Shown here: positions 1 through 11,461 of the stretch, one piece after another
How positions within the stretch are numbered: position 1 is the stretch's first letter
Layout: the number at the start of each line of letters is the position of its first letter
Source of the DNA: a virus
Taxonomy: Duplodnaviria; Heunggongvirae; Uroviricota; Caudoviricetes
Reading direction: 5' to 3' (one strand)
Virus record (IMG/VR): IMGVR_UViG_2565956612_000010
Length of the DNA: 11,461 nucleotides
The notes under the pieces: model-generated
What the model saw: the letters and a program-made list of their open reading frames with translations, nothing else
Told to the model about the DNA's origin: nothing
The model's database searches: none
Program-made: the position numbers and the translations under genes

Positions 1-141
1 CTACTGCTTACACTGTAAGAACGCCGCAAACTCCGCTCCCCAGAAGCTCATCCGTATTTCGCACAGCGAACCGTGCAGCATCCAGATGATGAGGATTGCC
101 GTCACGCAGAACGTGATGGCCGTAAGCGATTTTTGCGACAT
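1..141 (-). CDS. hok: Hok/Gef-family type I toxin, 46-aa small membrane peptide
   Basis: Reverse complement of 1..141 gives ATG..TAG encoding MSQKSLTAITFCVTAILIIWMLHGSLCEIRMSFWGAEFAAFLQCKQ. It has an N-terminal hydrophobic helix and the SLCE(I/L) and E-x-AAF-L-x-C-K motifs recalled from HokA/HokC/HokE. Below the 60-aa cutoff of the ORF track. Confidence 0.7.
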   Translation of the reverse strand: MSQKSLTAITFCVTAILIIWMLHGSLCEIRMSFWGAEFAAFLQCKQ

Positions 142-271
142 AGCACTTGCTCCTTTTCCGGAGAGGCGCTAACCTTTCACTTGTCAAGGTAATGCGGTTA
201 GGGCCTCGGTTAAACAGAGATGTTTTCCGGGGCCTTTCCACATCTGGCCTTCGGGTATTCCCTCCGACCAT
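8..271 (-). CDS. Putative mok-like reading frame overlapping hok in another frame
   Basis: 87-aa ORF with an ATG at 269..271 covers the whole hok ORF in a different frame, as mok does in hok/sok loci. The protein has no recognisable fold; the call rests on position only. Confidence 0.3.
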   Translation of the reverse strand: MVGGNTRRPDVERPRKTSLFNRGPNRITLTSERLAPLRKRSKCYVAKIAYGHHVLRDGNPHHLDAARFAVRNTDELLGSGVCGVLTV

Positions 272-331
272 CAGCCGAAAGGCACCCGCGCGTAATCTAT
301 CGCTTTTTTGTTACTCCGGCAATTCTGCCTG

Positions 332-592
332 TTAATTCTGAGGTAAAGGCAAACTCATCTGATTGTTTCCCCTGTGTGAAGCTGGCAGCTCATGCCACGG
401 GATACCATCTGAAGAGTGAACGCCGGAGGCGTGTTTCGATGTGAATTTATGGAAAGCTTCCAGTGTTGAGAAGCATACACCGCATTCCAGGTTGTTACAC
501 TGGTAATACTTTTGCCGCACGGTGTTTGAATCATTTTCCGGACGACTGGTGCGGATACGGGCAGATGCGCCACAAAGCGGACAACGGAACAT
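332..592 (-). CDS. ogr: Ogr/Delta-family zinc-finger late-gene transcriptional activator
   Basis: N-terminus MFRCPLCGASARIRTSR...YYQCNNLECGVCFST matches P2 Ogr (MFHCPLC...RTSR...YHQCQNVNCSATF) with four Cys in C-x2-C...C-x4-C spacing. Strong SD AAGGGAGG sits 5 nt upstream of the ATG on the - strand (593..605). The C-terminus is longer than P2 Ogr. Confidence 0.8.
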   Translation of the reverse strand: MFRCPLCGASARIRTSRPENDSNTVRQKYYQCNNLECGVCFSTLEAFHKFTSKHASGVHSSDGIPWHELPASHRGNNQMSLPLPQN

Positions 593-793
593 AGCGACCT
601 CCCTTAACGTGGTGCTGGTTCTATTTTAAGTTGTACTGGCTCAGACTCCAACAGCCACTCCGTCTTGAGCAAAAAGTTAGCGCAGGAGTGCATGTTTAAA
701 CCTAATTGCTTTAAATATAGTGATTCGGATAACCAGATGACTTGTGTTTATATATGATAACGGTAAAAATCTACTCTCTATGAGAATGTTGAT

Positions 794-1954
794 GTGAAAA
801 TGGTCACTATGAAGATAACTAAGACAAATTTTGGTATAACTATTAATGATACTTTAATAACGGATTTTCGCGATGTAGTTAATGAAAGAGATTTTGTTTA
901 TAGTTACTTCATAAACAGAAATGGTAAAAATCAGTTCAGCCCTATTTGTTCATGCATGGATTGGATTACTGTTTCTGTACGCTATCTTATGAACATCCCT
1001 GAAATATCTGAAGACATTGATATTAAAACTATGCAGATTTATACTATTATATCATCAATCGATATAATAGTGGAAGCGGTGCGGCAACTCCATCGTATTA
1101 TTGAAAGTGACAATAATTTTATGAAATGGCCTTTTAAAGGCTCTGTTGATATTTTTAAGGATAAAATACATTATCTTTCGCATGAGGATGATGACTCTTA
1201 TTTTAAGAGTATTCGCGCTATTTTTGGTGCTCACCCTACGAATCTTAAAAATAACCACGGGGAGAGATTATTTGCGAGCTGGCCTCATTTTTATGCACTT
1301 AATAATAATGATTTTACTATAAGTCTTTATAATAACAAACCCGGTGTGGATGATATTATTTTTGGTATTAAATTTAACGAGCTTATCTCATATGTTGAAA
1401 GTAGGTATAAATATCTAGAAAAACTAATGGACTCTATAGTGGTAATTCGTAACAACCATTACGATGTTTTGTCCGCGCAAGTTATATCATCCACCGATAA
1501 CATTTATGATGAGTTGAGGCTGCTTCTTTCAGAAGTCGCTATACGAGGTAATAATGATTATTACCGAATGCAATTAGAAGAGTTAATTCATTTGTTTGAT
1601 GGTTGTGTTAAAGAGAAGCATCTTCAAGATGAAGTAAATGAGTTTTTGAGTAAACTCTATCCGATCGTTTTAGAGATTAGAAATAATCTTCAGAAAATGA
1701 ATGTTGAAGATTTAACAACTACTTGTGATGTGATTATTTCGAGGCTTCCTACAGGTGAATTAAGTTATGTTCTTCAGAAGATGTTTTCTTGTCTCCACTC
1801 AGATAGGGATGATCCATTGAAGGATTATTACCTTGATACTTTAAATAAATATACTGAAGGTTGGTATAATTTTTGCTCTGCAGATAACGATAGTACAACC
1901 TTGCTAAAACTTAGAATGATGCTGTATCGGTATCATCAGCAAAAACTTGATTAA
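794..1954 (+). CDS. Hypothetical protein; AT-rich orphan accessory gene (moron), candidate anti-phage defence or abortive-infection protein, family unassigned
   Basis: Long uninterrupted ORF of 386 aa in a region visibly far more AT-rich than the flanking phage genes. N/I/K/D/Y-rich protein, no Walker A motif seen. Track start is GTG at 794; in-frame ATGs at 800 and 809 are alternative starts; no strong SD. It is antisense to the flanking ogr and D. Confidence 0.6.
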   Translation: MKMVTMKITKTNFGITINDTLITDFRDVVNERDFVYSYFINRNGKNQFSPICSCMDWITVSVRYLMNIPEISEDIDIKTMQIYTIISSIDIIVEAVRQLHRIIESDNNFMKWPFKGSVDIFKDKIHYLSHEDDDSYFKSIRAIFGAHPTNLKNNHGERLFASWPHFYALNNNDFTISLYNNKPGVDDIIFGIKFNELISYVESRYKYLEKLMDSIVVIRNNHYDVLSAQVISSTDNIYDELRLLLSEVAIRGNNDYYRMQLEELIHLFDGCVKEKHLQDEVNEFLSKLYPIVLEIRNNLQKMNVEDLTTTCDVIISRLPTGELSYVLQKMFSCLHSDRDDPLKDYYLDTLNKYTEGWYNFCSADNDSTTLLKLRMMLYRYHQQKLD

Positions 1955-2030
1955 CGATGAGAAATAATGTCAGCGGATTTTTTATAATCTTGCATATCAA
2001 TTCATCGTTAGGTTTATGATTCCTATTTCG

Positions 2031-2069
2031 GGCACAGAGCAAACAGGTATATTATGTTGGCTCTGTGCC
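2031..2069. other. Perfect 10-bp inverted repeat (GGCACAGAGC / GCTCTGTGCC) with 19-nt loop between convergent genes
   Basis: Read directly from the sequence; lies between the stop of the AT-rich ORF (1954) and the stop of D (2085). No U-run follows on either strand, so it is not a classical intrinsic terminator. Confidence 0.4.
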
Positions 2070-2084
2070 GTATCTTCCCACCAT

Positions 2085-3191
2085 TTAGGTCTGCGCAATC
2101 CATTCAGGGATTTTTGTTTCAAGTTCAAGCTGCGTGGTAAAGCCGCTGTTATCAATGGTGTGCTCGGCTTTTGCAATAATCCAGTCCTGATTATCAATCT
2201 CGCTTTTAAATCCTGTTACCGTGCCATGCATTTCGGGGTAGAGTTCTGCGCGTCCACGTGCCAGTGTGATGGAGAACGCTGCGGCTCCGCGTTGTAGCTG
2301 CTGCCACTTTGCCGCCGCTGCGCGTCTTGCTGCCTGCTCGTTCTGATAAGTCTTGCGTAACACAAACACATTGCCTTCCGCGCCTTCCATATAATCACCT
2401 TCACGGCTGCTGCTTTTCTCCTTTTTGGGTTTTGGCGGTTTACGGCGTTTTACGCTGACTTTTTTCTTTTTCCCGTAATTAAGATCAAGCCAGTAGGCGC
2501 GTACCCCCGTATACGCCTCGCGGTCAGCAATACGGAACTGATGGCGATCGCTGCTGCTGCGTGTAATGGCGAACGAGGGCAACGGCTGGCCCTGTGCGTT
2601 CACGCCACCACCTGGCATGATGAATAACAGATTGCCGCTTTTTACCGTGGTGATTGCGCCCAGCATTTCCGCCATGCGCGTAAGGAAGGACATGTCGCTT
2701 TCTTCGGTCTGGTCGGCGTGGTCGATTTCAATATCCATCAGCATTTCGCTGATTTGCGGTTTCAGGCCGTATCGGTGAGCAATTGCAGACACCACGCGTT
2801 CAACGGTCACATCATGCCAGGATACTTCGCGCTTGACGTTAAATTCATCCCGAAAATCTGCGCTTCTGGCTGAAATGGTCAGTCTGTCGGGCGGTCCTTC
2901 ATGAGCAATTTCATCAACAATGTAAGTGCCTTTTTCTGTCAGCGGTTCTCCTTTCCAGCCAATGAGAACCGTCAGGCGCGCGCCCCGTGGCGGTAGCTGC
3001 AACTGACCATCCGCATCATCCAGCGTGATGGTGAGCTGGTCCGCTTCAAATCCCCGGTTGTCGGTCAGTGACAGGCTCATCAGGCGCTCTGCCACGCCGG
3101 ACAGCGTTTCCCCCTCCGCGAGAATATCAAAATCCGGCATTTTCACGGGGTCTGTGCCCTGACTGAGCAATTGCATGGTGGTGTCGGTCAT
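2085..3191 (-). CDS. D: P2 gpD-like tail protein (late control gene D family)
   Basis: Matches P2 gpD at LTDNRGFEADQL, SWHD, FLTR and the lysine-rich KKKVSVKRRKPPKPKKEK stretch. Start placed at the internal ATG 3189..3191 (MTDTTMQ...) because it follows the strong SD GGGAGGG; the upstream ATG at 3210..3212 is the track start. Confidence 0.88.
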   Translation of the reverse strand: MTDTTMQLLSQGTDPVKMPDFDILAEGETLSGVAERLMSLSLTDNRGFEADQLTITLDDADGQLQLPPRGARLTVLIGWKGEPLTEKGTYIVDEIAHEGPPDRLTISARSADFRDEFNVKREVSWHDVTVERVVSAIAHRYGLKPQISEMLMDIEIDHADQTEESDMSFLTRMAEMLGAITTVKSGNLLFIMPGGGVNAQGQPLPSFAITRSSSDRHQFRIADREAYTGVRAYWLDLNYGKKKKVSVKRRKPPKPKKEKSSSREGDYMEGAEGNVFVLRKTYQNEQAARRAAAAKWQQLQRGAAAFSITLARGRAELYPEMHGTVTGFKSEIDNQDWIIAKAEHTIDNSGFTTQLELETKIPEWIAQT

Positions 3192-3347
3192 CTTTCCCTC
3201 CCTGTGCAGCATGGTCGCATGTGCGTGCGGAGGGGGTTACTGCTTTTTGTTGTCGCCGTGGCGGGAGAACGGCGCAGGGGTGAGATTACGCGCGTGGTGG
3301 GTGATGATTGTTGCCGAATCATTTAACGGATACAAGGGGCTGAAGCT

Positions 3348-4532
3348 ATGAGTGAAACTCGTTTTCATGGTGCCCGTGTTACGGAAAGTACCGACCTGGT
3401 AACAGCGATTAATGATGTTGATTCCAGTGTTATCGGTATCGTGGCAACGGCGGATGATGCGGATGCGGAGCTGTTCCCGCTGAACAAGCCCACACTGCTG
3501 ACCCGCGTCAATGACGTGCTGGGAAAATGCGGAACAACGGGGACGCTTTATCGTGCGCTTAAGGCCATCGCAGACCAGGTGAGCACAAAGGTGATCGTCG
3601 TTCGCGTGGCTGAACACAAAGAAGAAGACGGAAAAACGCAGGATCAACTGGTTATCGGTGGTTCTGAATCTGACGGCAGCTATACGGGGATGTATGCGCT
3701 GCTTGTTGCAGAGCAGGATGAAAGCATCGGATACCGTCCGCGTATTCTGGCCGCGCCGGAGCTGGACACGGAGGCGGTAACAAAATCCCTGTGCGTGATT
3801 GCGGGTAAACTGCGCGCGTTTGTGTATGCCTCATGTCACGGCTGTAACACGATGGCTGAGGCGATTACCTACCGCCAGAAATTCAACGAACGTGAGGTGA
3901 TGCTCTTATGGCCGGACTTCATCGCCTACAACCCGAAAAGTGGCAAAAACGAAACGTTCCCCGCGCCTGCCTATGCGTGCGGCCTTCGTGCGTACATTGA
4001 CCATGAGCAGGGCTGGCACAAATCGCTGTCCAACGTTCCGGTTAAAAATGTGCTGGGGATGTCCAGGCATGTGTTCTGGTCGTTGCAGGCCGAAGACAGT
4101 GATGCCAACAGCCTCAACAACAAAGAAATCACGACCATTATTCGTCGCAACGGGTTCCGCTTCTGGGGCAACCGCACCCCGGAAACGAACGCCTACATCT
4201 TTGAGGTGTATACCCGAACCGCACAGGTGCTGGCTGATTCAATTGCGGAAGCGCAGTTTGAAACCATCGACAGTCCACTGACGCCTGCGAACGTGAAAGA
4301 TGTTATCAGTGCCATCAGGGCAAAACTGGATTCACTGGTTACTGCCGGGAAACTGATTGGGGCGTCGTGCTGGTATGACGTGGTGGATAACGGCACCACG
4401 AATTTACGTCAGGGGCGCGTGCGTATTCGCTACAAATATACGCCTGTTCCCCCGCTGGAAGACATGGAGCTTTACCAGTCGTTTACTGATGAATTCTTTG
4501 GTCCCGCATTTGCGGTGCTGGGAGGTGCCTGA
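3348..4532 (+). CDS. FI: Contractile tail sheath protein (P2 gpFI family)
   Basis: 394 aa; conserved blocks shared with P2 FI (DADAE-FPLNKP, QGWHK-LSNV, IRR-GFRFWGNRT, YTPVPPLE). SD AAGGGG 8 nt upstream. Its stop overlaps the FII start (TGATG). Confidence 0.95.
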   Translation: MSETRFHGARVTESTDLVTAINDVDSSVIGIVATADDADAELFPLNKPTLLTRVNDVLGKCGTTGTLYRALKAIADQVSTKVIVVRVAEHKEEDGKTQDQLVIGGSESDGSYTGMYALLVAEQDESIGYRPRILAAPELDTEAVTKSLCVIAGKLRAFVYASCHGCNTMAEAITYRQKFNEREVMLLWPDFIAYNPKSGKNETFPAPAYACGLRAYIDHEQGWHKSLSNVPVKNVLGMSRHVFWSLQAEDSDANSLNNKEITTIIRRNGFRFWGNRTPETNAYIFEVYTRTAQVLADSIAEAQFETIDSPLTPANVKDVISAIRAKLDSLVTAGKLIGASCWYDVVDNGTTNLRQGRVRIRYKYTPVPPLEDMELYQSFTDEFFGPAFAVLGGA

Positions 4533-5044
4533 TGGCTGTACCAAAACATCTTCGCTTTTTTACGCTGTTTGTGGATGGTGAAAACGAAGTGGGTAAGGTG
4601 ACGTCTGTCACTCTACCTAAGCTGACGCGCAAAACCGACAGCTACCGGGGTGGTGGCATGATGGGTGCGGTAAGTATTGATCTCGGTCTGGACGACTCCG
4701 CGCTTGATGCGAGCTTTGTCATGGGGGGCGCAGTTCGTGAGCTGTTCCTTAAGTATGGCGGCACGATTGACGGCACGCTGCTGCGTTTTGCGGGTGAATA
4801 CTACACCGATGCAGAAAGCGACCTGTATGAAGTCGAAATGCGCGGACGTGTGACGGAAATTGATATGGGGGAAGCCAAACAGGGCGAAGCCACATCACAC
4901 ACTTACGCCATTAAAAACACCTACTACAAGCTGAGTGTTAACGATCGCCCGTTGTGGGAGATTGACCTGCTGAACTTCATTTACCGGAAGGACGGCAAGG
5001 ACATTGTGCCCGATCGCATCCGTTCCGCGCTCGGGCTTGGCTGA
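4532..5044 (+). CDS. FII: Tail tube protein (P2 gpFII family)
   Basis: 170 aa; SVTLPKLTRK, YRGGG and VEMRGR blocks match P2 FII; translationally coupled to FI. Confidence 0.95.
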   Translation: MAVPKHLRFFTLFVDGENEVGKVTSVTLPKLTRKTDSYRGGGMMGAVSIDLGLDDSALDASFVMGGAVRELFLKYGGTIDGTLLRFAGEYYTDAESDLYEVEMRGRVTEIDMGEAKQGEATSHTYAIKNTYYKLSVNDRPLWEIDLLNFIYRKDGKDIVPDRIRSALGLG

Positions 5045-5098
5045 TAAGTAATATGCAGGCGGCGCAGTGCGTCGCCTCTGACTGAAAGGAGTTTCCTG

Positions 5099-5464
5099 AT
5101 GAAAGAGACGAAAAACATCGATACCGAAAACACGGTAGTTACTGACACTGTGAAAGAAACCAGTGAGCGTGGCGTAAAACTTACCCAACCAATTGAGCGA
5201 GGCGGCGAAAAAATCACGTATGTGGAGATCACCGGGGCTATTGAGCAGGCTGGATCTCTGCGAGATTTGTCGCTGTCTGATGTGCTGAATCTGAAAGCGG
5301 AATCCATGTTTACGCTGCTGTCACGCGTGACATCACCGCGACTGGATGAAGTGACGATCAAAAAAATGGCATCCCGTGACTTTATTCAGTTATGTGTGGT
5401 TGCCGTAAATTTTTTGAGCGGTGCGGACTCTGGCGGGAAGAACGAACAGGCGACGGAAGCCTGA
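5099..5464 (+). CDS. E: Tail assembly chaperone gpE (zero-frame product)
   Basis: 121-aa ORF directly after FII with SD AAGGAG (5086..5091); it contains a slippery heptamer near its 3' end and is followed by an overlapping -1 frame ORF, the P2 E/E' arrangement. Confidence 0.85.
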   Translation: MKETKNIDTENTVVTDTVKETSERGVKLTQPIERGGEKITYVEITGAIEQAGSLRDLSLSDVLNLKAESMFTLLSRVTSPRLDEVTIKKMASRDFIQLCVVAVNFLSGADSGGKNEQATEA

Positions 5465-5628
5465 TCACGGTTGTGTGCTTTGAGCACATAGAAGACTTTG
5501 TGGCGGATATTGCCGCCATTTTTAACTGGTCGCCCGCCGAAATCTTCATGATGACGCCCGGCGAAGTGGTTAGCTGGCGTGAGCGGGCGGCACTTCGCAG
5601 CGGGAATGCAGACAATGAAGACTCTTGA
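5099..5628 (+). CDS. gpE+E' frameshift fusion chaperone (E codons 1-106, then 70 codons of the -1 frame; about 176 aa)
   Basis: Deduced from the slippery site and the open -1 frame; analogous to P2 E/E' and lambda G/GT. Its 3' end overlaps the start of T. Confidence 0.6.
5410..5416 (+). other. Programmed -1 ribosomal frameshift slippery site T_TTT_TTG
   Basis: Heptamer TTTTTTG in the E zero frame (codons TTT 5411..5413, TTG 5414..5416). The -1 frame opens at 5416 and runs to a stop at 5626..5628, the same frame as track ORF 5392..5628. Confidence 0.65.
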
Positions 5629-8422
5629 TATCCGGGTCGCTTTCAGCGCCGTTGACAGGCTGACCCGGCCTGCCGAAAACGCCCGCCGCCTGATGGGGCA
5701 GTTTGGTGACTCCATCCAGCGAACGCAGGGGGCGATCAAAAATCTCGAGCGTCAGGCGCGATCATTTGAGCGCGCCCGCGACGCTGTCAGTAAAGCGGAT
5801 GCGGGTATCGTGAAAGCACGACGCCAGCTTAACGCCCTTAATCAGTTACAACGCACGGGTACAGTGCTCAGCGAAAAACAACAAAAGCTGATGCAGCAGT
5901 TAAGCACCCGGCTTGAACGCCTGAATGAATCGCGCACACGGGAAATTCAGAAAATGCGGGAGCTTGGCGGAGAGCTGATACGCCACGGCATTTCCCTGAC
6001 AGGCAGCGATAACACCATCCAGCAGGCCATCAGACGCACCGAACAGTACAACAACCAGCTTGAACGCGAACGGCAGGCGCTTGCGCGTGTAACGCGGGCG
6101 CGTGAGCGGTATTCGCGCGCGCAGGAAACCGCGGGAAAACTGAAAACAGGTGGTGCGCTGGCAATTGGTGCGGCAGCGGCGGGCGGCTATGCTGCCGGGC
6201 GTTTTTTGCAGCCTGCGATCGGGTTCGGCAAAGAGATGTCCCGCGTTCAGGCACTGACGCGAATCGACAAAAACAGCCCGCAGTTTAAGGCGCTGCGTGA
6301 GCAGGCGTTAAAACTTGGCTCTGAAACACAGTTTACTGCGAGTGATGCCGCCAGTGGGCAGAGCTTTCTGGCAATGGCTGGTTTTACTCCGCAGGCCATT
6401 CAGGCCGCATTGCCCGGTGTTCTTAATATGGCGCTGGCAGGTGGCGTCGAACTCGGCGAGACGGCGGATATAGGCTCCAATATCCTCACACAGTTCAACC
6501 TGACAGCCGATCAAATGGACCGGGTGGGCGATACGCTGACAGCAGCATTTACCCGGACCAATACTGATTTACGCGCGCTGGGCGAAACCATGAAGTATAC
6601 CGGTCCGGTTGCCGCAAAACTTGGTATCAGTCTTGAAGAAGCGGCGGCCATGGCCGGGATGCTTGCCAATAATGGTCTTCGCGGAAGCGATGCTGGCACG
6701 GCCATGCGCGCAAGTCTGTCCCGCCTTGCATCACCGCCAAAAGCTGCGGCTGATGCACTGAAAGAGCTGGGGGTGTCAGTTGCTGACGCCAGAGGCAAAA
6801 TGCGCCCGATGGAGGATGTGCTGCTTGATCTCTATAAGGCGACACAAAAATACGGACAGGTGGACCAGGTCTCCTTCTTCAAGGACATCGCCGGAGAAGA
6901 GGCGTTCGTTGGTTTGCAGACGCTTGTTGCGGCGGCTGGTTCAGGAGAGCTGCAAAAACTGACCAGAGAACTGCAGGGGGCAAGGGGAGAGGCCGATCGC
7001 GTTGCAAAAGTAATGGCCGATAATCTTGATGGGGACCTGAAAAATCTCGACAGCGCATGGGAAGGTCTTCGTATTCGCATCAGTGATCTGGTTGACGGTC
7101 CGCTGCGTTCTGTCACGCAGTGGCTCACGCGGGTGCTTGAAAAAATCACCTCGCTGGCGCAGGCCCATCCGGTACTGACGCGCCAGCTACTGATAGCAGG
7201 CGGTGCGTTGCTGGCAATGACTGCAACGATTGGCTCGTTGTCGCTGGTTATTGGGGTGCTTTACGGAAAGCTGGCCACCCTGCGTCTTGGTTTTGACATT
7301 CTTACCCGGTCAATGAATGTCGTCCGGGTGTTGCCTGCGCTGTGGGGAATGCTGACGGGTTCTGTTTCTTTGCTGGGAGGCGCTATCGGGGCGCTGTTCA
7401 GTCCGGTTGGATTGATTGCTGCTGCGTTTGTGGCTGCGGCGGTTCTCATCTGGAAATACTGGGAACCCATTAAGGCGTTTTATGCCGGGGTGTTCAACGG
7501 GATTATGGAAAGGCTGACCCCGTTGCGCGAAACCTTTGAACGGTTTGGTCCTGTTTTTGACGCAATCGGAAGCGGGATCAGCCAGGTGTTTAACTGGTTT
7601 AAATCGCTGCTGTCACCGATGGAGTCCAGCAAGGAAACGCTGGATAAATGTACCAGTGCTGGCGAGATATTCGGTAACGTTCTTGGCGGTGCGTTACAAC
7701 TTGTTCTGACACCTGCAAAAATGCTACTGGATACGCTGGCGTGGATACTTGAAAAACTTGGCGTCCTTCCGGATGAAGCGGAAAGGGCACGCAAGGAAAT
7801 CGAAGACGCACAGCGTGCGGTCATTCTTCAGGACAAGGTTGCCTTACTTCAGGGGGACCTGGCGAAAATCAATCCGCCGAAGCCTGTGGAAAATGGCAAT
7901 GGCACCGGAGGTGATAAACCCAAAGACAACAAACCGCTCACAGACAGCAATACCGGGACGCTACGCAGACTCAGCAAAATTGCTGATAACACAGGTAAGC
8001 TGGTTGATGAGACGAAAAAACGCATTGGCCCCGGCGATATTGTCTTTAAGAACCTGCCCCGCGCACTTGCTGTTCGTGGGGAGTGGCAGGAGCGGAAGAT
8101 TGCGCAGGTCAGTAAGCCTGCCCCCGCAATTAATATCACACCCGTGGTCCCGGCTCCGCTGCCTCCGGCGCTGGTCCCTGTTGTTGCGGCCAGCTCCCGC
8201 CCGGTGGCGGAGGCCATACGATCTCCAGTGGCATCAGTTCCTGTAACTTCCCGTAACCGGGAGCCTGTTGCCTCCGGATTTGGTGGTGAAATTCATGTTC
8301 ATCTGCATAACGTTGTTACGCAGAATCCCCGCGAACTGGCGAAACTGGTCGGTGAAATGGTCAGGGCAGAAATGGAACGGCGCGCCCGTGCCGGGCGTGG
8401 CAGTTTTTACGATAAAGATTGA
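5615..8422 (+). CDS. T: Tail tape measure protein (P2 gpT family)
   Basis: About 935-aa ORF with a coiled-coil-rich N-terminal half, hydrophobic glycine-rich central segments and a Pro/Ala-rich C-terminus, in the tape-measure position between E/E' and U. Start is ambiguous: track GTG at 5579, ATG at 5606, and ATG at 5615, which has GGGA 9 nt upstream. Confidence 0.9.
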   Translation: MKTLDIRVAFSAVDRLTRPAENARRLMGQFGDSIQRTQGAIKNLERQARSFERARDAVSKADAGIVKARRQLNALNQLQRTGTVLSEKQQKLMQQLSTRLERLNESRTREIQKMRELGGELIRHGISLTGSDNTIQQAIRRTEQYNNQLERERQALARVTRARERYSRAQETAGKLKTGGALAIGAAAAGGYAAGRFLQPAIGFGKEMSRVQALTRIDKNSPQFKALREQALKLGSETQFTASDAASGQSFLAMAGFTPQAIQAALPGVLNMALAGGVELGETADIGSNILTQFNLTADQMDRVGDTLTAAFTRTNTDLRALGETMKYTGPVAAKLGISLEEAAAMAGMLANNGLRGSDAGTAMRASLSRLASPPKAAADALKELGVSVADARGKMRPMEDVLLDLYKATQKYGQVDQVSFFKDIAGEEAFVGLQTLVAAAGSGELQKLTRELQGARGEADRVAKVMADNLDGDLKNLDSAWEGLRIRISDLVDGPLRSVTQWLTRVLEKITSLAQAHPVLTRQLLIAGGALLAMTATIGSLSLVIGVLYGKLATLRLGFDILTRSMNVVRVLPALWGMLTGSVSLLGGAIGALFSPVGLIAAAFVAAAVLIWKYWEPIKAFYAGVFNGIMERLTPLRETFERFGPVFDAIGSGISQVFNWFKSLLSPMESSKETLDKCTSAGEIFGNVLGGALQLVLTPAKMLLDTLAWILEKLGVLPDEAERARKEIEDAQRAVILQDKVALLQGDLAKINPPKPVENGNGTGGDKPKDNKPLTDSNTGTLRRLSKIADNTGKLVDETKKRIGPGDIVFKNLPRALAVRGEWQERKIAQVSKPAPAINITPVVPAPLPPALVPVVAASSRPVAEAIRSPVASVPVTSRNREPVASGFGGEIHVHLHNVVTQNPRELAKLVGEMVRAEMERRARAGRGSFYDKD

Positions 8423-8434
8423 GGAGTCATGGCC

Positions 8435-8923
8435 ATGATGATGATCTACGGCATGTTTGTTTTTGAGCTGCGCACGCTGCCGCATCAGCAGTTACAGCAA
8501 AACAAAAGCTGGCGGCATGTGAAAAATGAACGCGTTAACCGTTCAGCAGGCTGGCAGTATATCGGCGCAGGTGATGATCGCATTGTGCTTTCCGGCGTGC
8601 TTTATCCTGAAATTACAGGTGGCGAAGTGTCGCTTTCGTTGCTGACCACGCAGGCATATACAGGACGCCCCTGGCCTCTGATTGATGGTGTCGGGCAGAT
8701 TTACGGCATGTATGTACTGACTGAAACGAATACGACCCGTTCCGAGTTTGATCGCTATGGTAAGGCGAAAAAGATAGAATTTTCACTGACTCTTGAACGC
8801 TGTGATGAGGATTTGCGGGAGCGCCTGCAATCCTCATCGTTCAGCGATATGCTGTCCGGCTTCAAAGATAAAGTGACATCATCTCTTAACAGCGCGGCCA
8901 GCTCCGTTAAAGGGCTGTTTTGA
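8435..8923 (+). CDS. U: Tail protein gpU
   Basis: MMMIYGMFVFELRTLPHQQLQ aligns with the P2 gpU N-terminus (MMMVLGLFVFQLKTLPYQQLQ). SD GAGGAG (8421..8426) lies 8 nt before the ATG at 8435; the track start at 8429 is too close to the SD. Confidence 0.9.
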   Translation: MMMIYGMFVFELRTLPHQQLQQNKSWRHVKNERVNRSAGWQYIGAGDDRIVLSGVLYPEITGGEVSLSLLTTQAYTGRPWPLIDGVGQIYGMYVLTETNTTRSEFDRYGKAKKIEFSLTLERCDEDLRERLQSSSFSDMLSGFKDKVTSSLNSAASSVKGLF

Positions 8924-8930
8924 TTAACGC

Positions 8931-8960
8931 AAAACCGCTAATGGTCAGATTAGCGGTTTT
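8931..8960. terminator. Putative bidirectional intrinsic terminator (12-bp perfect stem AAAACCGCTAAT / ATTAGCGGTTTT, 6-nt loop)
   Basis: Hairpin between convergent U (stop 8923) and the invertase (stop 8950..8952), flanked by T-rich and A-rich runs usable on both strands; the invertase stop codon lies inside the stem. Confidence 0.55.
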
Positions 8961-9549
8961 CATTTTCCTGAGTCTGCCTGGTTGTTTCTTCAGCCTGTAT
9001 ATCGCCTACAGGGTGATAACGATAAATCGTCGATATGCCGATGTCGTAAATGATCGCCAGTTGTTTCCTGTCATGACCGTTTTTAATCAGCCTCGCTATT
9101 TGCTCGTGTTGTTCTTTTGTCAACTTCGGGCGACGTCCGCCAATGCGTCCTTGTGCGCGTGCTGCTGCCAGCCCGGCCAGTGTACGCTCTACAATTAATT
9201 CACGTTCCATTTCGGCTAAAGCCCCCATGACGTGAAAAAAGAAACGCCCCATGGGTGTTGACGTGTCAATGCTGTCCGTCAGACTACGGAAATTAACACC
9301 TTTTTCCCGCAATTCCTCAATAAGCGTGATCAGGTGTTTCATACTTCTGCCCAGTCTGTCCAGCCTCCAGACAACCAGCGTATCTCCTTCTGATAGCGTT
9401 CTGAGCAGTTTTTTCAATCCCGGTCTGGTTGATTTCGTTCCGCTGATTTTATCTTCAAAAATCAGTTCACATCCTGCGCAGTTCAGTGCATTGCGTTGTA
9501 AATCCGTGTTCTGGTCGTTTGTTGACACACGAATATAGCCAATTTGCAT
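8950..9549 (-). CDS. Serine DNA invertase (Hin/Gin/Cin/Pin family)
   Basis: MQIGYIRVSTNDQNTDLQRNAL... has the catalytic Ser in the YIRVST motif, and the LVVWRLDRLGRS and DTSTPMGRFFFHVMGALAEMERELIVERT blocks are near-identical to Hin. Start at ATG 9547..9549 is preceded by SD AGAGGA; the 43-codon N-terminal extension in the track is an artefact. Confidence 0.93.
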   Translation of the reverse strand: MQIGYIRVSTNDQNTDLQRNALNCAGCELIFEDKISGTKSTRPGLKKLLRTLSEGDTLVVWRLDRLGRSMKHLITLIEELREKGVNFRSLTDSIDTSTPMGRFFFHVMGALAEMERELIVERTLAGLAAARAQGRIGGRRPKLTKEQHEQIARLIKNGHDRKQLAIIYDIGISTIYRYHPVGDIQAEETTRQTQENENR

Positions 9550-9603
9550 AAAAAACATCCTCTTTGTTTCGTGAAAAATACAGAGTTGGTATAGGTAGGG
9601 ATA

Positions 9604-9629
9604 AAAACGAAAACGTTGGTTTGGGGGAA
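9604..9629. other. Candidate 26-bp invertase crossover site, left (hix/gix/cix-like), core TT at 9616..9617
   Basis: AAAACGAAAACG-TT-GGTTTGGGGGAA. The inner half-site is the exact reverse complement of the inner half-site of the right-hand site; the ...AAACC-AA-GG... centre resembles hixL. Confidence 0.5.
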
Positions 9630-9838
9630 GGCTCTGCATTGCCTGTTGGTGTACCGGTTCCATGGCCCACCGCCACACCGCCAGCAGGCTGGTTACAGTG
9701 CAACGGAGCTACGTTCACCAAAGAACAATATCCTGTTCTGGCCAGAGCCTACCCGACCCTCCGTCTTCCCGATTTGCGCGGTGAGTTTATCCGTGGATGG
9801 GACGACGGGCGCAAGATTGACGAGGGGCGTAAGTTGCT
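9616..9838. repeat. Inverted repeat, left copy (about 220 bp), encoding the shared N-terminal part of the fibre-tip cassettes
   Basis: Aligned by eye to the reverse complement of 11010..11232; includes a 94-bp perfectly identical core at 9721..9814. Both copies encode GLGEGSALPVGVPVPWPTATPPAGWL...RGEFIRGWDDGRK. Confidence 0.85.
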
Positions 9839-10094
9839 TTCATGGCAGAAAGGTACACTGGTCGGCGGTCATGACGATAACGATTCTGCGCTTGATATCT
9901 CGTACATGAGTAACGGAAATAATATTGACTATGGCGGCGATAAGGTGTTTGCGGGGAATTACCGTAGCGATTATTTGTGGTACGCAATGCTGGGTGGAAC
10001 AAACAGTCGCGCAAAAGCCGAATTAAACGGAGCATTCTTTAACATAACCCGCCCCCGCAATATCGCGTTTAACTATATCGTGAGGGCGGCGTGA
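9618..10094 (+). CDS. Silent alternative tail-fibre C-terminal cassette (start-less; expressed only after inversion fuses it to H)
   Basis: Frame is open from the crossover core to a stop at 10092..10094; there is no ATG or SD, and the track 'start' at 9564 is TTG inside the invertase leader. The encoded tip shares the IR-encoded N-terminal block and the C-terminal RPR-IA-NYIVRA motif with the H tip but differs in between. Confidence 0.75.
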   Translation, partial: GLGEGSALPVGVPVPWPTATPPAGWLQCNGATFTKEQYPVLARAYPTLRLPDLRGEFIRGWDDGRKIDEGRKLLSWQKGTLVGGHDDNDSALDISYMSNGNNIDYGGDKVFAGNYRSDYLWYAMLGGTNSRAKAELNGAFFNITRPRNIAFNYIVRAA

Positions 10095-10100
10095 TACCGT

Positions 10101-10715
10101 TCAACTGGCAAGTGCCAGTGGCGCTTCCGGCCAGCTGATTTCAGGTGCCTTGCTGATATCCAGTGCGTTCAGCTCGTCGATATAATCCAGCACGGCGTTC
10201 AGTTTTGCCGTTTCTTCTGGTTTCAGACTGCGACCTGCCCGCAGTTTGAGGTTGATGGGGTCGATGGACTTCATCGCCTGATCCACCCGTTTCTGGCGTT
10301 GCAGTCTGGCAGTCTCCAGTTCTGCGGCTCGCTGCCGTTCAGTATCGGTTACCCACGCCTCACCGTTCCAGGTATCCCATGGCGTGGCTGGCTGTTTTGT
10401 GGTGGTGTCCGCCGGGTAATCACCCGGTTGGGTAATCAGAACAGGGTTACCGTTCTCCGTGCTGTATACCGTCTCGCCGCGGTGATCAGGCACATGCTCC
10501 CACCCGTTCAGCGTGGCAGTCCGGCAAACCACGTAACCCGAAATTGCCTCCGGCGGTGCATCGGCGCACGAATGTGCCGGAGTACCCACCCCAAGGGCGA
10601 GATACTCCACAGAGGATGAGGTGTATTCCCGGGTTTCCTCGTCATAGTGATATACAGTGATATCGCCCGCTACAGTGGCGATACCGTTTTCATCCAGAAC
10701 TGCAGTGTTACTCAT
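10101..10715 (-). CDS. Tail fibre assembly chaperone (Tfa, P2 gpG / Mu U-like)
   Basis: 204-aa ORF directly downstream of H with stop/start overlap TAATG at 10713..10717; composition and position are typical of Tfa proteins. Confidence 0.85.
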   Translation of the reverse strand: MSNTAVLDENGIATVAGDITVYHYDEETREYTSSSVEYLALGVGTPAHSCADAPPEAISGYVVCRTATLNGWEHVPDHRGETVYSTENGNPVLITQPGDYPADTTTKQPATPWDTWNGEAWVTDTERQRAAELETARLQRQKRVDQAMKSIDPINLKLRAGRSLKPEETAKLNAVLDYIDELNALDISKAPEISWPEAPLALAS

Positions 10716-11461
10716 TAAACTGCCCTCACAATGTAATTAAGTGCAATGCTACGGGGTCTGACAGTGATACCCTTCGCATACCCGCTTCTGATAGAGGTCA
10801 GAATAGTAGCCTGCATACCATTGTCTGACATTGTTATGACAGGATCGCTGAATGTTGTCCCGTCCGGCATTTTAAAGCTGCCCTCACGAAGGTCTGTAAT
10901 GGAATCTTCATTGTTGAATCCCATGCCGACTATCCCCGAGGTTCCCGTAGTGTCCTGGTTATAATAATCCAGCATTGCTGTTCTTAACAGCGTTGCCCCT
11001 TGTGCGGACAGCAACTTACGTCCTGTATCAACTTTGCGCCCGTCGTCCCATCCACGGATAAACTCACCGCGCAAATCGGGAAGACGGAGGGTCGGGTAGG
11101 CTCTGGCCAGAACAGGATATTGTTCTTTTGCAAAGGTGCGCCCGTCGCACTTTAACCAGCCTGCTGGCGGTGTGGCGGTGGGCCATGGAACAGGCACACC
11201 AACAGGCAGTGCAGAGCCTTCCCCCAAACCAAGGTAATTGAGGACATCTTTTATACTGCCCTTAGCGATAATAGCGCGACCAATAGCTGTAAGGGTTGCC
11301 AGCGCTGCGCGGTCTGCTCCGGTAAAATAAGGCAACCGATCTGCTGCAGTGGCAAGTCCTGCCAGAGCAGTGAGCGTGGCATCTGCCGGTTGTTTTCCGT
11401 TTGCCAGATCGTATGCAGCCTTGACCGCTTTCGGTGTGGCGGCCAGTATTTCAGACGTGCT
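10715..11461 (-). CDS. H: Tail fibre protein H, 3' portion (N-terminus beyond the window end)
   Basis: The reading frame stays open to the window edge (...STSEILAATPKAVKAAYDLANGKQPADATLTALAGLATAADRLPYFTGADR...); the track start at 11335 is TTG and artefactual. The C-terminal tip lies inside the invertible segment. Confidence 0.88.
   Translation of the reverse strand, partial: STSEILAATPKAVKAAYDLANGKQPADATLTALAGLATAADRLPYFTGADRAALATLTAIGRAIIAKGSIKDVLNYLGLGEGSALPVGVPVPWPTATPPAGWLKCDGRTFAKEQYPVLARAYPTLRLPDLRGEFIRGWDDGRKVDTGRKLLSAQGATLLRTAMLDYYNQDTTGTSGIVGMGFNNEDSITDLREGSFKMPDGTTFSDPVITMSDNGMQATILTSIRSGYAKGITVRPRSIALNYIVRAV
11010..11232. repeat. Inverted repeat, right copy (within H)
   Basis: Reverse complement aligns with 9616..9838; perfectly identical core at about 11034..11127. 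Confidence 0.85.
11219..11244. other. Candidate 26-bp invertase crossover site, right, core AA at 11231..11232
   Basis: TTCCCCCAAACC-AA-GGTAATTGAGGA. The inner half is identical to the reverse complement of the left site's inner half; the outer half belongs to the constant part of H. Confidence 0.5.

Follow-up and report, generated by a model that had tools for sequence, protein, structure and literature searches.

The window analyzed here, 11,461 nucleotides of viral DNA, raises the question of what a single gene is doing between two conserved phage genes that are neighbors in relatives of this phage. The gene is flanked by ogr (332..592, minus strand), an ogr/Delta-like late transcription activator that forms the left border of the interval and is annotated as an "ogr/Delta-like zinc finger family protein" in the identical locus of E. 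coli M1/5, and by D (2085..3212, minus strand), a late control or tail protein gene that forms the right border. It lies on the strand opposite to both. In P2, as the original prediction stated, D and ogr are adjacent, separated by an 81-bp spacer with the ogr promoter inside it, and the two genes are likewise adjacent in phages P88 and PhiR44_2. The prophage itself had been taken for P2-like. The orientation of D, which is divergent from FI-U, makes it a P88-like phage (Peduoviridae, Xuanwuvirus) and not a strictly P2-like one. A reading of this arrangement as an inversion of the FI-U block relative to D was dropped because the divergent order of D and FI is native to P88, PhiR44_2, and Shae_phiSM. 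A hok/sok module adjoins the ogr-D interval. In this study, we found that the gene is a good candidate for an anti-phage system that consists of one protein and is built around a HEPN-like RNase core. The explanation that we favor is that it came in on a horizontally acquired ogr-D cassette and that its product is most likely a one-protein abortive-infection defense, for which we propose a HEPN-like RNase mechanism; we assign this explanation a probability of about one half.

The gene is genuine and evolves under purifying selection. The large open reading frame proposed on the strand opposite to ogr and D is present at 794..1954 (plus strand), with GTG794 as an alternative start; in the PGAP annotation and in the homologs the start is ATG800, which gives a gene at 800..1954 and a protein of 384 amino acids, a member of a large unnamed family. 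Its dN/dS is 0.12 in comparison with phi458, and its fold is predicted with confidence (AF2 model with pLDDT 90 and pTM 0.82). The gene is, as had been noticed, far more AT-rich than its neighbors: its GC content is 0.32, compared with 0.54 in the flanks, and its GC3 is 0.28, compared with 0.58 to 0.61 in D and FI, while along the DNA the GC content runs at 0.29 to 0.34 across positions 600 to 2000 and at 0.51 to 0.60 in the flanks. P88, PhiR44_2, and P2 lack the gene, as do more than 98% of the related E. coli prophages, and near-identical or related copies are found in other mobile elements. Because the composition is deviant, relatives lack the gene, and copies exist elsewhere, the separate horizontal acquisition put forward in the original prediction holds, and the 1.45-kb segment is a cassette of foreign origin that carries one gene and was acquired horizontally.

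The spacer between ogr and D is a genuine cargo slot of low occupancy, in line with the variable slot suggested in the original prediction. Of the complete E. coli genomes, about 27% contain a P88-like prophage; the ogr-D locus is found in about 1,450 E. coli genomes. The spacer is empty in most of them, with a length of 42 bp, and it is empty in P88 and PhiR44_2; among evenly sampled records, roughly a quarter of the slots are filled. Only 20 genomes (0.4%) among the 5,426 complete ones of E. coli carry the gene studied here, each time between ogr and D. Elsewhere at least eight other cargos of one gene each occupy the same spacer, and several are defense-like. They include PIN_4, DUF3800, and DUF2971 proteins, a ParA-like ATPase, a SEC-C protein, and a HEPN-like hypothetical protein, and two small hypotheticals are also among the single-gene candidates of the slot. 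The DUF2971 cargo is the PADLOC candidate PDC-S31 (E value of 5e-27), and the HEPN-like hypothetical has a subthreshold match to HEPN_RiboL-PSP. The slot alternates between being empty, as in most genomes, and carrying PDC-S31, PIN, HEPN-like, or other cargos. The cargos share the insertion site, the common ends, the single-gene format, and the low GC content, whereas the proteins of the DUF2971/PDC-S31, PIN_4, and HEPN_RiboL-PSP-like cargos are unrelated to the window protein; hhalign of the family against the HEPN_RiboL-PSP-like cargo was uninformative, with a probability below 1%. The hotspot papers that were consulted do not single out the ogr-D spacer, and a literature search returned no prior description of the protein accession or of the slot.

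The architecture of the cassette can be followed from one border to the other. Positions 593..633 are a remnant of the original D-ogr spacer, collinear with the 42-bp spacer of the empty slot in L083 and with all occupied slots, and end in TTTTAAGTTG, one copy of the TCTAAGTTG-type direct repeat. The remnant is followed by a left common region (634..675) that is common to cassettes with unrelated cargos, in keeping with the end sequences that the cassettes of the slot have in common. On the minus strand, TTGGAG (651-646) and TAAAAT (628-623), separated by a 17-nt spacer, form a weak, sigma-70-like candidate for the ogr promoter; its score of 8/12 is under the scan threshold, so we place the ogr promoter at 651-623 only by inference. 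The gene has, as predicted, an AT-rich upstream region of its own (676..799, plus strand), which is specific to this cargo and contains no consensus promoter and no small open reading frame. Downstream, a first hairpin (1951..2011, plus strand) overlaps the stop codon, and a second (2031..2069) lies between the convergent gene and D. The latter had been described as a perfect stem-loop. The stem-loop is real, its region folding with a z score of -3.85. Complementarity between the arms (2031-2045 and 2055-2069) is 93%, with a perfect core of 10 bp and one mismatch. It is homologous to a hairpin in the DUF2971 cassette, lacks a U-tract, and was not returned by the terminator scan; across the cassette, no promoter or terminator was found at the scan thresholds. 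At the right junction (2070..2093), the cassette runs directly into D, with about 29 bp of the usual right common end deleted, and the D protein ends in IAQT before its stop codon instead of the usual IAETE. The cassette contains no small open reading frame, antitoxin RNA, RNA family, or repeat array.

Sequence searches placed the protein in a family without providing a function. The window protein has no usable match, HEPN models included, in Pfam, NCBIfam, PADLOC, or PHROG, which agrees with the original statement that it could not be assigned to a family. Its sole Pfam match, Spore_Cse60 with an E value of 0.11, is a chance match, and PADLOC-DB v2.0.0 (2023) returned 0 families at an E value of 10 or less. 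A Pfam scan of 107 family members gave no recurrent family, and no HEPN family is among those listed. Profile searches against PDB sequences, run with a profile of the full length and with one of the core alone to which the Bacillota branch had been added, gave chance matches only; the AlphaFold model has no significant neighbor in the PDB, and comparing the family with an ApeA protein by hhalign yielded nothing informative. The gene had been called an orphan, which is true of its annotation only, because the family is large: it comprises 127 clusters at 90% identity and at least 687 representatives at 50% identity, and it spans Proteobacteria, Campylobacterota, Spirochaetota, Bacillota, Mycoplasmatota, and Lentisphaerota. 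Relatives in Bacillota have only the N-terminal core in common with the window protein, and their C termini differ. No relative carries a name, and all sources give "hypothetical," save for one UniRef label. That label belongs to P0471, a core-only member from Bacillota that hhalign connects to the family with a probability of 99.95%; its UniRef name, as given by the source, is "Cthe-2314-like HEPN," and the precomputed Pfam record of P0471 is empty. The N-terminal fusion partner of P0070, P0082, and P0084 is another unannotated family.

An indication of what the protein may do comes from its conserved N-terminal core (residues ~15 to 230; 842..1489, plus strand), a candidate HEPN-like catalytic domain. 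The predicted core consists of helices at residues 18-37, 46-64, 73-105, and 131-144, a three-stranded sheet at 156-190, and a helix at 192-226. Its most conserved block (1190..1234, plus strand) contains D131 (nt 1190-1192), which is invariant in 107 of 107 members, and the sequence RAIFGAH (nt 1214..1234), which is R139-x5-H145. H145 is present in all 107 members and R139 in 104 (97%), with K in two and H in one, and neither residue varies in an alignment of the core to which the Bacillota branch was added. Both AF2 models end helix 131-144 at A144, and H145 and P146 are the first residues of the nonhelical segment. The long helix 73-105 precedes the motif, with a long loop between them, and carries D88 (104/107) and E92 (93/107). 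HEPN domains are defined by a conserved R-x4-6-H motif that lies at the C terminus of a core helix and the start of the next loop, with a conserved acidic residue, typically in an E-x3-[KR] pattern, near the motif in the preceding core helix; the definition also includes a four-helix up-down bundle and metal-independent RNase activity that leaves 2',3'-cyclic phosphate ends (Anantharaman et al. 2013, PMC3710099). The predicted placement of the motif at the end of a helix matches this published layout. What had been offered as a weak HEPN hint is thereby strengthened: no other motif in the family is as well conserved as R139-x5-H145, and its position is HEPN-like. The C-terminal domain (residues ~231 to 384; 1490..1951, plus strand) is helical and less conserved, with near-invariant R249, Q298, and Y323, and we propose that it may be a regulatory or sensor part.

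The same core can be read in another way, as that of a defense or conflict gene without a HEPN domain: for example, a metal-dependent hydrolase built on D54, D88, D131, and H145, or a nonenzymatic sensor or adaptor, with DNA, nucleotides, or a phage protein as its target. All of the defense context described below applies equally to such a protein. There is no significant match to a HEPN model or a HEPN structure, and three invariant or near-invariant aspartates (D54, D88, and D131) beside a single invariant histidine would fit a metal-dependent enzyme. In HEPN domains the motif arginine is usually followed by a polar residue, N, D, or H (Anantharaman et al. 2013, PMC3710099); in this family that position (residue 140) departs from the usual pattern, with Ala in 92 of 107 members and Ser in 11. 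The E-x3-[KR] pattern is also absent. Finally, one lineage has the domain as an N-terminal extension of an AbiEi antitoxin, a position typical of sensors and regulators. We regard a non-HEPN core as unlikely. A bolder version, which we consider just as unlikely, holds that the core is an unseen catalytic fold (W55, D54, D88, D131, R139, and H145) and not a HEPN RNase. The family would then be a new class of single-protein abortive-infection effectors spread by phages, ICEs, and plasmids over many bacterial phyla, and the ogr-D spacer, with its common ends and TCTAAGTTG repeats, would be a dedicated site of cassette exchange, not a passive recombination scar.

The case for defense as such rests on the genomic neighborhoods of the relatives, which are carried by prophages, ICEs, conjugative plasmids, and defense islands. 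The most recurrent neighbors are GmrSD, type I restriction-modification systems, and recombinases. A Klebsiella relative lies in an island with Mrr and PDC-S06, one from Clostridia adjoins PDC-S02, and one from Bacillus adjoins Gabija; on pSC138-type plasmids a relative is found beside AbiH and a PIN protein, and on an E. coli plasmid beside a type II restriction-modification system and pinE. Another relative occupies hotspot 4 of SXT/R391. The designation "hotspot 5" for this traN-ssb interval was considered and rejected, since the literature gives it as hotspot 4 and places hotspot 5 at s026-traI. In a single lineage, that of the distant member P0235, the protein is joined to a complete AbiEi domain, and AbiEii follows. 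No neighbor is conserved over about 65 loci, which marks the family as stand-alone. In qualitative terms, the family is enriched beside defense genes and on mobile elements, and its distribution is sporadic. The original suggestion of a defense gene gains support from this repeated and independent association with defense genes and from the AbiEi fusion.

The gene could instead be accessory without being defensive, acting in phage counter-defense, in lysogenic conversion or host fitness, or in prophage regulation. The cargo slots of prophages hold nondefense morons too, no defense model matches the protein, many neighbors of the relatives are ordinary housekeeping genes, which surround some of the loci, and the sources label the protein "hypothetical." Recurrence beside varied defense systems on plasmids, ICEs, and chromosomal islands, fusion to an Abi component, the nuclease- and defense-like character of other cargos in the slot, and a sporadic spread that is typical of defense genes all argue against such a role, which we judge improbable. 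Far less probable still is that the gene is a selfish toxin or an addiction module, stabilizing its mobile element without any anti-phage role. HEPN-type proteins are often toxins, hok/sok lies beside the slot, and plasmids and ICEs carry the gene, but neither an antitoxin gene or RNA nor a repeat array is present in the window, the surveyed loci share no partner, and chromosomal copies of the gene are intact and evolve under purifying selection. That the gene is a core structural or housekeeping phage gene, as its position among tail and late-regulation genes might suggest, or a spurious frame in AT-rich DNA is refuted by its absence from P88, PhiR44_2, P2, and nearly all related E. coli prophages, its hundreds of conserved homologs in nonphage contexts, its dN/dS, and its confidently predicted fold.

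In the HEPN-like abortive-infection reading that we prefer, the N-terminal core would be a divergent HEPN-like domain in which R139-x5-H145, probably aided by D131, D88, and D54, forms a metal-independent RNase site that presumably spans a dimer interface. The C-terminal helical domain would hold the enzyme in check; once a phage component had been sensed, cleavage of RNA would halt translation and phage growth, as described for HepS and Tha. Expression in the lysogen, the defense phenotype, the RNase chemistry, oligomerization, and the sensor role of the C-terminal domain are what we infer within this scheme. HepS, the "HEPN solo" abortive-infection protein of the Salmonella Gifsy-1 prophage, is a constitutively made, autoinhibited HEPN RNase with an R-x4-6-H motif that is activated by a phage structural protein (PMC13043305). 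Both proteins are single, prophage-encoded products of an accessory locus without a partner gene, and by analogy the window protein may follow the same logic of an autoinhibited, phage-triggered HEPN RNase. No homology was found between the window protein and HepS, which has fewer than 250 amino acids, an R100-x4-H105 motif, and a tetrameric form.

Other known systems resemble the cassette or its product in part. The P2 morons (old, tin, and Z/fun) and the P2/P4 hotspots are likewise AT-rich foreign cargo that alternates at a fixed position (PMC9122126, PMC13586616, 10.1101/2024.10.15.618418). Their loci are the cos-proximal old/tin or the Z/fun positions, whereas the present cargo occupies the ogr-D spacer of P88-like phages, and Old, Tin, and Fun are unrelated to the window protein. 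The type IV toxin-antitoxin system AbiE (AbiEi/AbiEii) is linked to the family through P0235, whereas the window protein itself lacks an AbiEi domain and is flanked by ogr and D, not by AbiEii. The Cthe_2314-like HEPN family (Pfam HEPN_Cthe2314) is bacterial and conserves Rx4-6H, and no contextual association was found for it in 2013 (Anantharaman et al. 2013, PMC3710099). The likeness to it runs through the UniRef name of P0471, a label given by the source, and its Pfam model is reported neither for the window protein nor among the families listed for the 107 members. Our literature search found no experimental work on the family.

As a compact one-gene system in a culturable host with natural lysogens (E. 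coli SE11 and M1/5), the cassette makes the hypothesis cheap to test, and the ogr-D slot of P88-like prophages is a source of further single-gene candidates, such as PIN_4, DUF3800, DUF2971, and others. If the protein protects against phages, a widespread family of at least 687 clusters at 50% identity would join the catalogue of defense systems, and the HEPN reading, if true, would for the first time set the Cthe_2314-type HEPN group, so far purely computational, in a functional context.

We put at roughly even odds (about 0.5) the reading that the AT-rich gene between ogr and D encodes a stand-alone, Abi-type defense protein with an RNA-cleaving HEPN-like core that stays silent until a phage product is sensed. 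Taken alone, a role in defense or conflict is likely, and assignment of the core to HEPN is somewhat favored. In the mechanism that we propose, the core would cleave RNA through R139/H145 (residues counted from ATG800), the more variable C-terminal domain or oligomerization would keep the enzyme silent, and sensing of a phage product would release its activity. This silent-until-sensed logic is that shown for HepS, the HEPN Abi protein of the Salmonella Gifsy-1 prophage (PMC13043305).

The original prediction had offered the R-x5-H match RAIFGAH as a weak hint of a HEPN RNase. The motif proves to be the family signature, because R139 and H145 are conserved across the family. Among 107 sequences, which reach down to 23% identity, conservation peaks at residues 131-165; W55, D131, and H145 are invariant (107/107), followed by R139, D88, and R249 (104/107 each), D54 and S160 (102/107 each), and S51 (100/107). 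With the Bacillota branch added, D131, R139, and H145 are still invariant. AlphaFold2, run on a 56-sequence alignment, returned a confident model (pLDDT 90, pTM 0.82) in which a predicted N-terminal core (helices 18-37, 46-64, 73-105, and 131-144, a three-stranded sheet at 156-190, and helix 192-226) is followed by a helical C-terminal domain; the core modeled alone is of equal quality. In the published HEPN layout, helix-2 bears a conserved acidic residue, helices 2 and 3 are set apart by a variable insert, and in Csx1 a beta-hairpin directly follows the motif (PMC3710099). The predicted model is compatible with this layout: D88 and E92 lie in the long helix that precedes loop 106-130, helix 131-144 stops at A144, H145-P146 begin a loop, and a beta-sheet comes after the motif. 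A late lead is the Bacillus protein P0471 (231 aa), which comprises the core only and aligns with the family, motifs included, at an hhalign probability of 99.95% (E 3e-38). UniRef names it "Cthe-2314-like HEPN domain-containing protein"; its precomputed Pfam field has no entry, and the source-given name therefore counts as a lead only. Cthe_2314 is a HEPN family listed without contextual association in the 2013 analysis (PMC3710099), and we found no experimental work on it in the literature. A rival reading, a defense protein with some other chemistry or one acting as a sensor, we regard as unlikely.

No model in Pfam, NCBIfam, PADLOC, or PHROGs recognizes the protein, no Pfam family recurs among the 107 members, and all public names of members are "hypothetical." It is nevertheless not the orphan it had been taken for, as the family forms 127 clusters at 90% identity, and an exhaustive profile search at the 50% identity level returned 687 representatives, of which 500 reach E <= 1e-10. 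The family is represented in Enterobacterales, Vibrionales, Alteromonadales, Psychrobacter, Arcobacter, and Sphaerochaeta, in Clostridia, Bacilli, Acholeplasmataceae, Kiritimatiellae, and Lentisphaeraceae, on viral contigs, and on 30 plasmids, 22 of which are conjugative. Phage phi458 carries a copy (71% identity; dN/dS 0.12 against the gene) flanked by a tail-assembly gene and an invertase. Recent intergeneric transfer is shown by one cluster of at least 90% identity, whose members come from Edwardsiella, Pasteurella, Vibrio, Proteus, Shewanella, and Enterobacter. A 98%-identical copy with ogr, D, and FI neighbors appears in NZ_JBQPOM010000071.1 ("Vagococcus sp. WN89Y"), a GTDB representative of a Firmicute; this copy lies in an enterobacterial prophage, and the record is probably contaminated or mislabeled.

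Across about 65 family loci we found no conserved neighbor, and the gene therefore works alone. The surroundings of its relatives point repeatedly to conflict systems. Among 139 neighbors within two genes, GmrSD-type type IV restriction enzymes, serine recombinases/resolvases, and type I restriction-modification subunits recur most. Relatives lie in a Klebsiella and Enterobacter island of resolvase fragments with a PDC-S06 ATPase (E = 0) and Mrr, next to PDC-S02 in Clostridia, beside a PIN protein and an AbiH-family gene on pSC138-type conjugative plasmids, beside a type II restriction-modification pair and pinE on an E. coli plasmid, in a Bacillus at a distance of 1.4 kb from a Gabija-like pair, after the holin-amidase cassette of Bacillus prophages, and, in Edwardsiella, in hotspot 4 (traN-s063; numbering per the literature) of an SXT/R391 ICE. 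On a Lentisphaeraceae contig the family domain is fused N-terminally to a complete AbiEi (PADLOC E 3e-39), and the next gene is AbiEii. In three further members (P0070, P0082, and P0084; 623 to 626 aa), the N-terminal 250 aa belong to a second fusion partner, an unannotated family of about 245 aa that has more than 2,600 database matches but none in Pfam; a Thiothrix island contains it together with AIPR, ApeA_NTD1, PIN/PhD, and PemK genes, and it may be another uncharacterized conflict-system domain. A non-defense accessory or counter-defense function is unlikely, and a selfish toxin is highly improbable.

The large AT-rich ORF predicted between ogr (332..592, -) and D (2085..3212, -), on the opposite strand, is upheld by both the ORF scan and the GC profile (0.29 to 0.34 over 600-2000 versus 0.51 to 0.60 in both flanks); third-position GC is 0.28 in the gene, 0.58 in D, and 0.61 in FI. 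The ORF runs 794..1954 (+), but the 386 aa first proposed become 384, since ATG800 is the start in PGAP (at the 100%-identical E. coli M1/5 locus) and in all close homologs. The predicted stem-loop (2031..2069) is likewise real (region folding z = -3.85), though not perfect, having one mismatch in its 15-nt arms; it lacks a U-tract and drew no terminator call in the scan. A second hairpin lies at 1951-2011, and we found no credible second ORF, Rfam family, or repeat array within the cassette. P88, PhiR44_2, and most of the P88-like E. coli prophages have an ogr-D gap of only 42 bp. Of 5,426 complete E. coli genomes searched with ogr..D, 1,448 have the locus; the gene is present in only 20 of these, invariably in this spacer and with an identity of at least 98.7%. 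A spurious ORF and a core gene of the phage are both effectively excluded.

As predicted, the slot is variable: empty in most prophages and otherwise holding different single-gene cargos, with the spacer filled (by the gene or other cargo) in 16 of 60 evenly sampled records. Cargos occur in either orientation, have a GC of 0.33 to 0.43, and include a 500-aa PIN_4 protein, a DUF3800 protein, a ParA/AAA_31 ATPase, a SEC-C-motif protein, a 340-aa hypothetical with a weak, sub-threshold HEPN_RiboL-PSP match, two hypotheticals of about 220 aa without a match, and IS600. Another cargo is a DUF2971 protein that matches the PADLOC candidate PDC-S31 (E 5e-27). The cargos of loci L075-L082 are further single-gene candidates. 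Cassettes, delimited by a TCTAAGTTG-type direct repeat, share a left region of about 42 bp (634-675 in the window) and a right end of about 45 bp; the DUF2971 cassette contains a homolog of the 2031-2069 hairpin. The window lacks the right common end, and a deletion of about 29 bp fuses the cassette end to D, whose C terminus reads ..AQT* versus the usual ..AETE*. By its position, TTGGAG-17-TAAAAT on the minus strand of the left region may be a weak ogr promoter (score 8/12, below the scan threshold).

D lies adjacent to ogr in P2, as the original prediction stated (U-D-81-bp spacer with the ogr promoter-ogr). The P2 order T-U-D-ogr is collinear, whereas here D (-) diverges from FI-FII-E-E'-T-U (+) within 2085-8923, at junction 3213-3347. 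We rejected an inversion, as this layout is native to P88, PhiR44_2, and Shae_phiSM (Xuanwuvirus, Peduoviridae); its gene order marks the prophage as P88-like and the layout as a Xuanwuvirus lineage feature, and D must therefore have a transcript distinct from that of the FI operon. PGAP annotates D in many E. coli genomes (L075-L083, L001) as a "VgrG/Pvc8 family" contractile injection system protein of about 265 aa plus a small pseudo-fragment; the intact ORF of 366 to 375 aa is present there and annotated in full in others. The overlapping ORFs 5099..5464 and 5392..5628, which lie in separate reading frames ahead of the tape-measure gene, have the arrangement expected for the P2-like E/E' tail-chaperone programmed frameshift. 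At the ogr end lies a hok/gef toxin gene (1-141, -; assigned from the identical, annotated locus of M1/5) with a match to sok antitoxin RNA (128..287, -; E 5e-9; its 48.4 bits fall short of the gathering score, 59), a module found in every P88-like locus sampled and in P88 itself. At the other end, a DNA invertase (8950..9678, -) adjoins two oppositely oriented tail-fiber C-terminal segments (9564..10094, +, and 10715..11335, -), which are almost identical over an N-terminal stretch (..LGEGSALPVGVPVPWPTATPPAGWL..) and flank a tail-fiber assembly gene (10101..10715, -); 8950-11335 looks like an invertible host-range segment.

What appears to be new is the family itself, missing from Pfam, NCBIfam, PADLOC, and PHROGs, its broad spread and association with defense genes, and the use of the ogr-D spacer of P88-like phages as a cassette slot, which neither Rousset et al. 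nor the 2026 NAR survey describes. The gene is of an already known kind, single-gene cargo in a prophage hotspot that probably encodes an Abi of the HEPN type. It is a solid, easily testable defense candidate that would not surprise specialists.
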